Origin: Lingula anatina
Lineage: Eukaryota > Animalia > Brachiopoda
Length of the DNA stretch: 64,000 bases
Direction of reading: 5' to 3'
Assembly: GCA_051362555.1 (NCBI GenBank)
Contig: CM120640.1
Coordinates: 35,979,967-36,043,966 of the forward strand
In this document: piece by piece, positions 4,115 to 13,780 of the stretch
Numbering within the stretch: position 1 is the first letter of the stretch
How the letters are laid out: the number at the start of each line of letters is the position of its first letter
The notes under the pieces: model-generated
Told to the model about the DNA's origin: nothing
Database searches by the model: none
What the model saw: only the letters and a program-made list of their open reading frames with translations
Made by a program: the position numbers and the translations under genes

Positions 4115-7100
4115 TCAGTTTTTGGTCAACTTCTGTATTTCCTCAGCAAGCACTTTTGTCATGTGAATAGCTTTGTTGGCTTCCTCTCCACCTATCTGTT
4201 CCAAGGCCAACTGTGCCGCATCCCGAACCGTAGATATTACATCATTCCGCCTGTACACACACAAAAAATTGTATTTTTTGTTTAATAATTGATATTTATA
4301 TAGATATAATATCAGCTTAAATGTGTTTAACATTTGTATAATTCAGTCTTGCCCTATATTGTCTCTGCTTTAAGTGCCCTCCAATATGGAAGTGATTAAA
4401 AAGTGATAAAAAACTTTTTATTTCAATTAAAATTGTTACATTTTTTACTATTGCAAACATTGCAACAAATGTGTGCATCACTAACATAACTCAAATATTC
4501 ACATTTATTTGTGGAATGACCCATAAGCAGACCAAAGAAAACAGGAAATGAGCAATGACATTAAACAATCTGGACTTGCAAGTACCACAGCACTCGATCT
4601 GGAATCTTTATTAGAAACACACTTACCACATCTGCACCAGTTTGCCAACTGCCGCCTGAGATTTCAGATTCCCCAGAGCCAGGCACCCGCTTTCTCTCAC
4701 CAGTCTATCCTGGTCTGTCAGTACTTTCTTCAACGCTTGAACTGTGACTTTGTCACTGCTCACAGCAGCTCTGGCCAATGATATTGCCGCCACTGCCCTG
4801 ACATTAGGGTCACTATCTTTTAAGAGGTCCCTCAATGCTTCCCTAACAGCTGGACTATTAAATTTTCCTGTTCAAAAAATCAAATAAGAACAGCTGACTC
4901 ATATGTTTTTTATCATAAGTTGAGTATAAAAAATATATATATATATATATATATATATATATATATATATATATATATATATATATATATATATATATTG
5001 AAATATAGATAATACATTAAAGTATAGAGTTTCGAATGCTGAAGGGCATTCTATTTCCTCTGCCTAACCTTCCCCACCACCCCCTCAAAAAGAAAGAAAG
5101 AAAATAAGAAGAAAAAAAGAAAAGAAACAGCATTACCAAATTCTAAAAACCAGTAGGATAAGATCTGATAATATGAGTGTTAACTATGTTGCACCTAAAA
5201 TGCACTTTCTGCAAAAATACCTAAATTTTCTATTGCCTCCACCCTGACATGAGAATCCATGTTAAATACTTCTCTCATGGCAAAGTGCTCTAAGGCATAG
5301 TCCTGCACTCGCTGCCACAATGAAAACAATTCCTTATCTATGGTGCAGAATTCTGAAATAAAAAAGAGGCTTTCTGACTTATTTAAGTCATATGACCAAT
5401 GGAAGATGATCCCTCCCCAAAATATAAAATAAAATAAAAATTATAAAAATGTTTTTCAGACCGGTGAATGCACGGTCCTTTTAAGAATTTACCATCAAAA
5501 CAATCTATTGCAAAATAAAAAAAAATCACTTTTGTTCATAATTGTTAGGAAATAACACTGCCCCCACCTTTATACTTTTCAACATGAAGAATCCCATCTT
5601 CCTCCACAGCCATTTCATGCTTCATCATCATCTCCATCCTCGTCTGGTCCTCCTCTGAGAACAGCTTGTCAATGTTACTCTTGTATTCCTGCTTGAATTT
5701 TCCTGAGAATCTAAGTAGATAGAGTAGACAAACGCTCATAATCTTAAATCCCAATTGGTGTTTAAATCCAAATACTTATCAGTTCATAAGTGTTTCAGTT
5801 ACACTGTATAAATTTGCAAAGTACACTATAAAGAATATATCCAATATCCTGCAAAAAAGGGTATTTTTCCTCTTGTTTTCAAAAGAGCAATTTAAAATGA
5901 CATCAAACCACAAATCTAACTGTATCATTATTGTTATCATGATAAAAGTAACATGAATGATTATGACAATAATAATAATAAAGATGATAAACAGATATCT
6001 TTTAAAAAAGGGCTATCTGTAAAAAAGGTTCCACACATGCATCTCAGCACTTTACATGAAAATTCCTGTATCACTAAAACAACATTAAAATCATACAAAA
6101 TATAGAAAAAATTGGAGTATCAAAAACACTAGTAGATTACATATAAACATCTTTTTAAATAGACCTCAATCTGTTAAAAAGTTTTGTATCTTTACATTGA
6201 TGAGTGAACACCAGAATAGACAATGAATAGCACCAAAAATTTTATATAATAATAATAATAGTAATAATAATAATAATAGCAGCTCTACCAATGGGAAACA
6301 AAGTTGTGATAATTTACAAAATGCACTTAGTACACTACACTTAAGAGCCACAACACTTATTGACTTAAACAGAAAAAAGAGACTTACTCAATCCATTCCA
6401 CTTGGTTTCGATCTGGGTAATGTTGGCTCCAAAAGTCCTCCTCCTTCACTGTTATGCCAAAGGAATCTAATCTTCCCATCATGTTTTTGTCAAATCTCTG
6501 GTTCATTCGTACGCTGTCTTGACGCTTCATTATTTGACGAGATTCTGTAAATATAAAGTGAAAAACAAATGATCACCACCAAGCTCTTCAGTGTTTTGTT
6601 TGGTCTCAAACAAATGCTCAAGACAATTCTCATTGATGATTTTTAATAAAGGGCTGATGATATGTGATTCTGACAATCAGCATTCAAATTTCATACAGTG
6701 CCTTAAAATGCATGCTACTAGCTATAGGTTCATACGTAAACAGGCAGATTCAGGGTGAAAAGGGTGAAAGGTGGAAAATCTTCTCTCCTTTCCCATCAAC
6801 TTTTTGTTTTTTCATTTTGTGCATCTGTCTGTGTTGTTCCTCTTATATTAACATTTAAGCGTGTAAGGCATGAAGTATCGTGACAATTAATTTTTTTCTC
6901 CTTGTCCTTTACCTGGATTTCCGTCTCCCTTATCAGATGGTTCAGCCTGCTTGGATGATGATGCCTCATCGGCTGGAGGCACGTGGGATTCGATATTCAT
7001 TTTAGATATTTCTGCATCCATTTTATTGGCAAGTTTGTCAAAATTGCTTTCAAAAGCATCTTCTTCAGTGAATAAGTTCCATTCAAATCTTGCTAATTGA

Positions 7101-9359
7101 AGTTTCCTACAGAAAAAAATGACAATGGTGCAGATGAAAAAATTCAGTTATCAATATAAATATGTAAAATTGTTCCTTATAAAAAAGATGTCATGAAATC
7201 AAAATTCTTTCCATCCTTAAATACTCACATTCCTGTGTCCATCAAAGGGAAAAGTTCTTCTGGAGTCTTGAGACCACATGGGAAGATTGGTTTATTGGAG
7301 ATATAGGCAAGAGCCAATTCATCCTGGCAGTACTTAGACGCTATGGACTTTTCACTTAACAAAGAAATGAAAAGCTAAAAAGATGAAAGAGAATTCTGTA
7401 TTAAAAAAGAAAAATAATTAAAACAAGATAAGTTTTAACTTAATATATTTACTGAACTCACTGTAGCATATGCAGTAAATTAATAATAAGCTATTATAGT
7501 AATACATTTATTTGAAACATTGCAACCATAAGGCTGAAGTTGTACGTATACATGAGTTTAAATAAAAACCTGATAATAAATTATTAACATAAAAGATTTA
7601 CATTAACATTAAATTGAGTTCAAAATAAAACACAGACCTCTACAAGCGGATTAAAGAAAAGGGGATAAAAGTGTTTTAGAAACATTCAGTTTTGAATTTT
7701 GGTACATTGAAGTTGGATTGGATATATGTATTAGCTCTCGGTATGATCTGGAGGTTAAGAGGTAAAATTAGGCTTATCCTTGACATTCTTAATTTTTTTT
7801 AGGAAAGATTTACATAGTTTTGTGCTCTGCTTTTCTAAAGTAAAGTAAAACAAAATACAAATAATTTTACCTTTTTTCCAAATCAATCATAAATCTAGTT
7901 AAAATATTTGCTTTGCCAAAATGATCCAGCTAATAGTCAAACATAGAGTTTATCAGTCAAGAAGTCTGGACTGACGGGCAACATAGAGCAAAACATAAAT
8001 CAACACCTAGAACAACATTGTGTATGCGGCACACTCAACACCTGACATGGTAATCTGCTCCCAAATAATTCAAGTCAAAACATGCAAACATGCAATTAAT
8101 ATCACTTATACTTTAATATAGCAGTCTCTTGCATGATGTGCATAAACTGTAGATCTTAACATATATGTCTTATGTGATTGAAATAAGCCTGAGTTCCATG
8201 AGTGTTGTAAATTATCTGATGCATTAAATAAAAAAATGATGTAATAATAATAGAGGATGAAAAATATTCTTACCTTTAATTTCAACACATTTCTCACAGT
8301 ATTGTTTCATTCATGTATGATATCTTCACAAAATATTAAAATCCACTCCAAAACATACTGGTGTGTTCAGTAACACTACTTAACACAATATCTTGGGATT
8401 GATTTGCTTAATTACAATTTGAACTTGTGGAGACAAGACTTTAAATTACAAATTCATGTTTAATTGTTGAAACACATTTCTGACAAATGTGGCCTCATTA
8501 TGCTGGGAATAAATGTAATGTGTAGATGGACGGGGCAACAGTTTGGAAGATGGCCATCATTTGAGAGCCTGCATGGAAAGATGCTGATACTTAAACATCA
8601 ACTTAATATAGATGATGTACTGAAGAAAAAGCAAACCAAATTTCTTTGAATTCTTGTGAATAGGTTTTTTAATTAATGAATCGATATCATTCTGCAGCTC
8701 AAAGTTGGGAATGTTTTTACACACACACACACACACACACACACACACACACACACACACACACACACACACACACACACACACACACACACACACACAC
8801 ACACACACACACACACACCACTTACCTTTGCATCAATAATAGCTTGCCCTATTTTACTGAGAAAGTCTACACCAGCCTTGAGACCGATTGTGTCTACCCA
8901 TACAGATATTCCATGCTTCTCTAATGCATCTGAAAAGATGACAAAATACTGTAACATGTTACACACAAATAACTTAGTACCTAGTATAAAATATACAGTA
9001 AAGTAACTGCAGAGGACTTCAAATATATACATTTAAGTAAATTACTCTTTCTAATTGTAAATACACAGACATAGTGTAATACTTAGTAGGTTCACAAACA
9101 AAAAGAAATATCATTATCAAAATCTTTAAACAGGTTCAGTTTCCTATTGCATAGTTTTTTGAGGCTGAAAAAAATTGTTCTGTAACTAACCTTTGAGTTT
9201 GTTCATCATATCTTTATCAGCATGGCTGTAGCTAATCATCACATCTTTGGGTTCAACAATGTAGTCAGACTTCGTCTCCTTTTGACCAGTTTTACTGGTT
9301 TTGGAGGGAGAAGAAGCAGAAGAATCCTTCCCAGTCTGAATGCTGGACCCAGAACCCAT
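4115..9359 (-). CDS. TIR-domain / EF-hand-like / HEAT-repeat protein, paralog A (9 coding exons, predicted N-myristoylated)
   Basis: Phase-consistent GT-AG exons: 9359-9191, 8929-8826, 7374-7229, 7106-6913, 6544-6388, 5710-5568, 5352-5221, 4867-4627, 4250-4115. Starts MGSGSS. TIR motifs DVMISYSHAD, GISVWVD, SKYCQDELALA. C-terminal HEAT/PBS-lyase-like repeats LLKDSDPNVRAVAAISLA, LTDQDRLVRESGCLALG, VRDAAQLALEQIG. Confidence 0.88.
4932..4998. repeat. (TA)n microsatellite
   Basis: Perfect TA dinucleotide run in an intron. Confidence 0.95.
8719..8818. repeat. (CA)n microsatellite
   Basis: About 50 CA units immediately next to the exon-2 donor of paralog A. Confidence 0.97.
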
Positions 9360-13500: not shown

Positions 13501-13780
13501 TAGATTGATTGAACCAATAGCAAAGTTTTAACTGGTAGATGTGGAATATTTACCAGCTCCAATATTTGGTTTCAAGTGTTTGTGTAATTTTTAATGAACT
13601 GGAGGATTTAGAATTTCAAAATTCTTTTTCTATAGGCGAAATGAACCAATTAAAGATGTGCGCCAAGCAGCAGAGAAAGCTTTAAATTTGATGGGAGGGA
13701 AGGATGCAGAGAAAGCTATTAAGGTCACACAGGTTTTGAACTCAGAGATTCAGAAGTTGAAGATGGCCAAGAAAGCATAA
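10586..13780 (+). CDS. TIR-domain / EF-hand-like / HEAT-repeat protein, paralog B (7 coding exons)
   Basis: Phase-consistent exons: 10586-10691, 10986-11065, 11504-11649, 11824-12386, 12982-13083, 13229-13364, 13636-13780. Motifs VDVLISHNQKD, LQDEVSLAYISNKAVFP, EVFSMDSSVRLTAVRNL, DQDPNMRAVAALALG, DEDRLVREATCISLG. Colinear with paralog A. Confidence 0.88.
11138..11198. repeat. (TA)n microsatellite
   Basis: Perfect TA run in an intron. Confidence 0.95.
12630..12917 (+). mobile_element. MITE family C, older copy, interrupted by a younger copy of the same family
   Basis: Begins AGGGGGGGATCCAGAGATATTTTCTGACAG and ends CCCAGAAGACAGCTTCAATCCACACTTG, matching the ends of the family C copies. Confidence 0.6.
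12684..12851 (+). mobile_element. MITE family C, young copy (168 bp)
   Basis: Perfect TIR CAGGGGCGGAT...ATCCGCCCCTG flanked by TCCAT on both sides (12679-12683, 12852-12856); homologous to 26179-26345. Confidence 0.85.

Follow-up and report, generated by a model that had tools for sequence, protein, structure and literature searches.

What would two divergently transcribed TIR genes be doing head to head in the genome of a brachiopod? The question is raised by a 64,000-nt stretch of Lingula anatina DNA (assembly GCA_051362555.1, contig CM120640.1, positions 35,979,967 to 36,043,966 of the forward strand), here called the window, in which adjacent genes A and B each encode an N-terminal TIR domain, a helical middle domain, and C-terminal HEAT repeats. 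An earlier note on this DNA had proposed that the two proteins form a hetero-oligomeric TIR enzyme or a sensor-executor pair. Part of that proposal stands: the architecture, the expression of both genes, and a linkage in other phyla are borne out, and A has the kind of pocket found in TIR enzymes that consume nicotinamide adenine dinucleotide (NAD), or NADases. That said, the two TIRs are unequal, the pocket having been lost from B, and nothing marks either protein as a sensor. An enzyme with a pseudoenzyme partner fits A and B better than two enzymes do, because only A has the NADase-like pocket. The reading favored here, to which we give a probability of roughly 0.45, is a prediction made from sequence: A would be a TIR enzyme that consumes NAD, whereas B, itself catalytically dead or weak, would regulate A as its partner in a complex.

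The TIR pockets of A and B

Six pocket positions were scored, in A numbering Tyr44, Asp69, Leu73, Gly76, an aromatic residue at 106, and Glu110. The complete set occurs in 51 of 55 A-type sequences, whereas none of the 42 B-type sequences retains five or six; four is the most found in any of them, and the B protein of the window keeps one. The split into an intact A and a lost B pocket holds in every named species that has both genes (18/18). Tyr44, Asp69, Leu73, and Gly76 align with SARM1 residues Y568, D594, L598, and G601 (numbering counted from the alignment), while the aromatic residue at 106 and Glu110 form the aromatic-x-x-x-Glu motif of helix alphaC, the helix being placed by an AlphaFold2 model. 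The catalytic-type Glu is found in 53/55 A-type proteins, and the Asp equivalent to Asp69 survives in only 2/42 of the B type. The BB loop of B-type proteins is scrambled, varying in both length and sequence, and in the window's B it is about 8 amino acids (aa) shorter. Enzymatic TIRs require the Glu, the BB loop, and self-association, according to a passage of PMC10022894. Since A keeps an NADase-like pocket while B has lost pocket residues and has a scrambled BB loop, we infer that A is a TIR enzyme of the NADase type and that B is not an enzyme, or only a weak one.

The best TIR fold match of the A TIR is SARM1 (Z 17.2, root-mean-square deviation 2.6, 129 residues aligned), and its top sequence matches are SARM1, Cat1, and bacterial TIR NADases. 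PADLOC models for TIR-SAVED, short-Argonaute TIR, and ThsB match A over aa 36-115, with E values down to 2e-11; the same models match B only over aa 12-44, at 1e-3 or worse. Between species, the TIR is better conserved in A (identity 0.58 vs 0.42 in B) and the middle domain in B (0.41 vs 0.33 in A), and both types keep the HEAT core and the helix just past the Glu nearly invariant. Met-Gly opens 38/55 A-type and 8/42 B-type proteins, although in Trichoplax it is B that starts this way; an N-myristoylation motif pattern matches 36/55 and 7/42, respectively.

Gene models, domains, and transcripts

The coding sequences and domains of the two genes are placed in the window as follows.

9359-4115, minus strand: coding span of gene A, nine exons, 473 aa, A-type (intact TIR pocket)
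9359-9191, 8929-8826, 7374-7229, 7106-6913, 6544-6388, 5710-5568, 5352-5221, 4867-4627, 4250-4115, minus strand: exons of gene A
9339-9359, minus strand: Met-Gly start of A, which fits the N-myristoylation motif; predicted membrane anchor
7031-9245, minus strand: TIR domain of A (aa 39-165, exons 1-4), from Pfam TIR_2, the SARM1 fold match, and the SARM1 alignment
8894-8892 and 7320-7318, minus strand: codons for Asp69 and Glu110 of A
5275-6444, minus strand: middle domain of A (about aa 239-330), a probable Cbl-type EF-hand-like fold; matches all weak
4115-5274, minus strand: HEAT/PBS-lyase-type repeats and C-terminal amphipathic helix of A (aa 331-473)
10586-13780, plus strand: coding span of gene B, seven exons, 425 aa, B-type (degenerate TIR pocket)
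10586-10691, 10986-11065, 11504-11649, 11824-12386, 12982-13083, 13229-13364, 13636-13780, plus strand: exons of gene B
10637-11877, plus strand: TIR domain of B (aa 18-128), with Glu81 (11558-11560) kept and the other five pocket residues gone
12044-12330, plus strand: middle EF-hand-like domain of B (about aa 184-279)
12331-13780, plus strand: HEAT repeats and C-terminal helix of B

Spliced by coordinates, neither gene contains an internal stop and all introns are GT-AG; the two ATGs lie 1,227 bp apart. The A model agrees with a stored Lingula anatina protein (P0217) at 467 of 473 residues and the B model with another (P0123) at 424 of 425. A second stored model of gene A, the 357-aa P0216 (LOC106160715), runs at its end into intron 7 and is likely a truncated annotation or an isoform. 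A and B are identical in 153 of 412 aligned columns (37%), and five of the six B introns share position and phase with introns of A. No third copy lies within the window. Pfam TIR_2 (A, E=1.6e-21, aa 40-165; B, E=8.1e-08) and HEAT_2 (A, E=6e-19; B, E=3.1e-19) match both proteins above cut-off, the same Pfam scan found no LRR, NACHT, death, or SAM match in either, and neither has a transmembrane segment (best 19-residue hydropathy 1.35 and 1.38). The earlier description of two intact, divergent multi-exon genes about 1.2 kb apart at their ATGs, encoding colinear but strongly diverged paralogs without transmembrane, LRR, NACHT, death, or SAM domains, is thus confirmed, as are the TIR_2 and HEAT_2 matches it had predicted.

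AlphaFold2 models of A and B (mean predicted local distance difference test score 81.7 and 83.7; predicted template modeling score 0.66 and 0.61) share one domain order, namely TIR, disordered linker, a middle domain made of helices, some four HEAT-type repeats, and finally a long helix. Among the matches listed by Foldseek and VIA for the full-length models, used whole as queries, only TIR and HEAT folds appear. The middle domain is probably Cbl-type EF-hand-like, because several matches, each of them weak, agree together: Pfam Cbl_N2 (PF02761) is found in 23 of 42 B members at E<=1, the best a weak 2.4e-4; a CBL structure superimposes with a template modeling score of 0.59-0.61 over 82-86 residues, below the tool's bar; and a profile search leads weakly to CBL (E 0.0026). 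The same Cbl EF-hand-like label appears in a table of PMC13142454. The EF-hand-like middle domain of the earlier note is in this sense borne out, if weakly, and the sequences of the two window proteins show no obvious canonical calcium loop.

Four RNA runs, chosen by species label and three of them stranded, were mapped on positions 8822-11135. Both genes are covered in all four, and each stranded run places their reads on opposite strands. The reads are mostly 90-99% alike to the window and therefore come from other individuals. Intron 1 is bridged by reads in 4/4 runs for A (46, 5, 8, and 45 reads) and in 3/4 for B (2, 0, 6, and 8), and loose read ends join exons 2 and 3 of either gene in 3/4; for A introns 3-8 and B introns 3-6 the support is the agreement of the models with the stored proteins. 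B can hardly be a pseudogene, its frame being intact and transcribed and its middle domain better conserved than that of A, and we set that possibility aside. The reads also define three features upstream of the coding sequences.

9760-9850 (upstream end approximate), minus strand: non-coding first exon of A, from spliced reads in 4/4 runs, the joint coordinates varying slightly
9460-9759, minus strand: 5' intron of A, from spliced reads
9850-10460 (limits approximate), no strand: gap between the transcript starts, a candidate shared promoter, from read coverage

Because A has this non-coding 5' exon and B reads begin near 10300-10460, the two transcripts start only about 0.45-0.6 kb apart. 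The CpG observed/expected ratio is 0.8-1.1 at 9400-10200 and 0.1-0.4 in the flanks. A scan of 9460-10590 for NF-kB, IRF, STAT, AP-1, CRE, and RFX consensus motifs found none. Co-expression of A and B, as the earlier note had supposed, holds to the extent that both are transcribed in every run, but the ratio of their depths differs several-fold among runs, and four runs with depth at the 5' ends are too little to judge co-regulation.

Other genes share the window. A multi-exon gene at about 14900-19500 on the minus strand is convergent with gene B; we take it to encode an SV2/SVOP-type MFS transporter, for which Pfam on three exons gave no confirmation. An SLC6/SNF transporter gene occupies 45837-55390 on the plus strand, and between its exons sits a 1010-aa open frame (46882-49914, minus strand) with endonuclease and reverse transcriptase of the non-LTR retrotransposon type. 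The first exon of Integrator subunit 2 (INTS2; E 1.3e-30) begins at 60433 on the plus strand.

Family, age, and linkage

Though the earlier note did not recognize a named animal family here, one exists. In Fig. S1 of PMC6321704, the Trichoplax proteins TrispH2_006850 and TrispH2_006851 (TIR plus Armadillo-type) are labelled ecTIR-DC 11, a name that the supplement of the same paper credits to Gerdol et al. 2017. The former is an ortholog of B and the latter of A (P0028 and P0230 group with B and A, respectively, in our trees), and the Lingula proteins fit the family layout of N-terminal TIR, C-terminal Armadillo/HEAT-type repeats, and no transmembrane segment. Judged by orthology and layout, then, A and B belong to ecTIR-DC 11. 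No functional study of the family was found in the literature searched, which lay outside subscription journals; excerpts of PMC5549309 report family 11 elevated in mussel gills along with MyD88 and STING, and a passage of PMC12521104 describes experimental evidence on TIR-DC proteins as limited.

Word-limited homolog searches, with B, an A-type profile, and a family profile as queries, recovered full-length homologs from placozoans, annelids, nemerteans, molluscs, a bryozoan, an acoel, echinoderms, hemichordates, amphioxus, and tunicates; sponge members are listed in the PMC13142454 supplement. No vertebrate, arthropod, nematode, or cnidarian was among the named homologs of these word-limited searches. 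Most species have one A and one B per genome, well conserved and without expansion.

A FastTree analysis of 126 sequences over 401 columns separates an A clade (n=55, support 0.975) from a B clade (n=42, 0.957), with 29 sequences in neither; the A-like proteins of tunicates and an acoel fall among the 29. On 16 chosen rows, the A/B split received a Shimodaira-Hasegawa approximate likelihood ratio (SH-aLRT) support of 100 in a quick LG+G4 tree, and approximately unbiased (AU) tests on the same 16 rows rejected joining both Trichoplax proteins (p=2e-05) or both Lingula proteins (p=5e-05), ruling out a recent duplication confined to either lineage. Given this SH-aLRT value and these AU rejections, the duplication, as read from the sequence trees, is older than the placozoan-bilaterian split.

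Several homologs outside the two clades deserve mention in their own right. P0205, P0263, P0268, P0282, P0297, and P0298 have the full architecture and all six pocket residues. So do metagenome loci L008 and L010, which have 62-63% GC, an uninterrupted TIR, and P0282 as best match; these loci may come from outside the animals, in which case the intact pocket would be ancestral. P0264, P0311, P0323, P0346, and P0376 group in a divergent clade whose members have long N-termini and have lost the TIR pocket by degeneration, apparently a second and independent loss.

The linkage of A and B is old as well. Neighboring locus tags or accessions on one scaffold are found in Lingula (two scaffolds), Branchiostoma floridae, B. 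belcheri, B. lanceolatum, Ptychodera flava, Trichoplax adhaerens, and Trichoplax sp. H2. Among the 18 species of the tree with both genes, five have neighboring identifiers, six have the genes on the same scaffold, and seven on different scaffolds. In the group of six, identifiers are far apart in five and uncompared in one, identifier order being an imperfect guide to position; in the group of seven, scaffolds are of unequal length and several assemblies are fragmented. Orientation was read directly at two loci, the window and metagenome contig L009, and both are head-to-head. In L009, A runs on the plus strand from about 5827 and B on the minus strand from about 2181, 3.6 kb apart; its A gene is closest to that of the bryozoan Watersipora, and its B lacks the pocket residues. 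The conserved linkage that the earlier note had proposed to look for elsewhere is supported by neighboring identifiers in four phyla and the head-to-head L009 pair, but it is not universal. In PMC3514665, long-kept linkage of paralogs is called unusual, 5'-5' pairs are enriched for co-regulation, and most of the linked paralog pairs surveyed came from independent duplications. The linkage of A and B, being ancestral yet often lost, argues for usefulness rather than necessity.

The metagenome set comprised 73 loci, of which L001-L020 were examined; the remainder are TIR-only matches of 25-36%. A-type genes at L001 (675-2126) and L002/L003, on bryozoan-like contigs, seem to be intronless and are possible retrocopies; those of L009, L011, and L012 have the usual introns. 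The Trichoplax adhaerens pair P0135/P0199 has consecutive locus tags and protein accessions that differ by 163, a gap that might reflect strand-wise numbering and hence opposite strands. Mytilus VDI42192/VDI42193 was dropped as a linked A/B pair, both being A-type and near-identical.

Proposed function and known systems

Under the reading we favor, A would often be tethered to membranes by myristoylation and would co-assemble with B through surfaces that both conserve, namely the helix after the Glu, the HEAT repeats, and the C-terminal helix. A signal sensed by the HEAT or EF-hand-like domains would alter the assembly and so switch the activity of A, with B either restraining A, as RRS1 does RPS4, or completing the active oligomer, as with FAM118A/B. 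We lean towards restraint or scaffolding as the role of B at rest, and an immune trigger for the predicted system is plausible. A bolder form of the idea would make this an animal TIR NADase independent of both SARM1 and TIR-STING, working as an obligate enzyme/pseudoenzyme pair that has stood head-to-head since before the placozoan-bilaterian split and yields an NAD-derived signal or cell death in invertebrate immunity, an analog in animals of the executor/regulator pairs of plants; this we consider unlikely.

Several observations weigh against an enzyme with a regulatory partner. Both the activity of A and its binding to B are predictions. The six-residue signature was picked on A's own residues, and Glu110 is equated with SARM1 E642 by its motif and its place on the helix, HMMER not having aligned the two directly because a SARM1 insertion shifted that part. 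The Glu is also kept in 31 of 42 B-type proteins, that of the window included. Non-enzymatic TIRs lie only 1-2 Z from SARM1 among the fold matches of A, and the TLR15 TIR scores well against the A profile (E 6.7e-07). B adjoins only one of four distinct metagenome A genes with at least 6 kb of upstream DNA, none being seen upstream of A in that span at L006, L012/L014, and L018. Linkage is patchy, absent or unshown in 13 of the 18 species; tunicates and an acoel yielded A-like copies and no detected B; and the A:B ratio of read depths lies anywhere between about 1:1 and about 7:1 in the four runs.

The last three of these points also favor separate roles, with A an enzyme and B engaged elsewhere (as a scaffold, for example, or in other cells or conditions), the linkage then being due to regulatory DNA that the genes have in common, or to an old inverted duplication that rearrangement has been slow to break up. 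Such an arrangement sits poorly with the loss of the B pocket while its flanking helix and HEAT surfaces were kept, uniformly across phyla, and with a neighboring position retained in four to five phyla, and we regard it as improbable. More doubtful still is a non-enzymatic role for both proteins, as TIR adaptors or as regulators of Toll-like signaling. Such a role has been hypothesized for ecTIR-DC proteins (quoted in a passage of PMC6321704), the TIRs of TLR15, MyD88, IL-1RAcP, and TRR-2 score near SARM1, and the mussel gill report places family 11 beside MyD88; yet adaptors offer no reason for six near-invariant pocket-lining residues in A alone, and Trichoplax carries A and B without having a true TLR.

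The enzyme and its partner might instead be real but serve non-immune signaling, for instance calcium- or cilia-linked control within ciliated epithelial tissue, or cell death. The lack of expansion in most genomes, unlike that of fast-evolving sensors, would suit this, as would the absence of a detected immune promoter motif between the genes and the combination of a myristoylation-like start with an EF-hand-like domain; enrichment in gills would fit ciliated tissue too. On the other side stand the missing calcium loop in the window proteins and the failure of the motif scan to find an RFX-type site, nothing positive pointing to cilia. This, too, we hold to be quite unlikely.

Where would an A enzyme regulated by B stand among known systems? 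Within ecTIR-DC 11 itself, the function, the A/B split, the pocket asymmetry, and the ancient linkage appear undescribed in the literature searched, which excluded the family-defining Gerdol et al. 2017. SARM1/TIR-1 offers the closest TIR fold and sequence for A and likewise joins a cytosolic TIR to an alpha-solenoid, but it is a single gene with the order ARM-SAM-SAM-TIR, whereas A and B are a pair without SAM domains, with the TIR at the N-terminus, a short C-terminal HEAT/PBS solenoid, and an extra EF-hand-like domain. Trichoplax has a separate Sarm1-like gene, listed in the PMC6321704 supplement. In RPS4/RRS1, one TIR is proposed to be an NADase executor and the partner TIR its inhibitor (a passage of PMC9528088). 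The likeness lies in the head-to-head genes, seen in the window and in L009, and in the short shared intergenic region of the window; A and B differ in lacking NB-ARC, LRR, and integrated decoy and in having conserved one-to-one orthologs instead of forming a fast-evolving cluster, and their interaction is only predicted. FAM118A and FAM118B are vertebrate sirtuin-like paralogs that are weak singly but process NAD jointly (PMC12700824). They too are two animal paralogs, but the analogy is functional only, their fold being SIR2 rather than TIR and without homology to A or B.

Profiles of bacterial Cat1, TIR-SAVED, short-Argonaute TIR, and ThsB match the A TIR across the pocket region, although the match is confined to the TIR, and none of the named matches was recognized as a bacterial protein that has the whole architecture. 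A 2020 survey (PMC7075850) names SARM1 as the sole metazoan TIR with known NADase activity, and the supplement to a 2026 TIR atlas (PMC13142454) puts the A/B family outside every supported clade. Against that background, a conserved, near-single-copy animal TIR that keeps its pocket and comes with a dead paralog of its own would be a testable second system with a natural control, and A and B would be a rare ancient paralog pair whose linkage has been kept.

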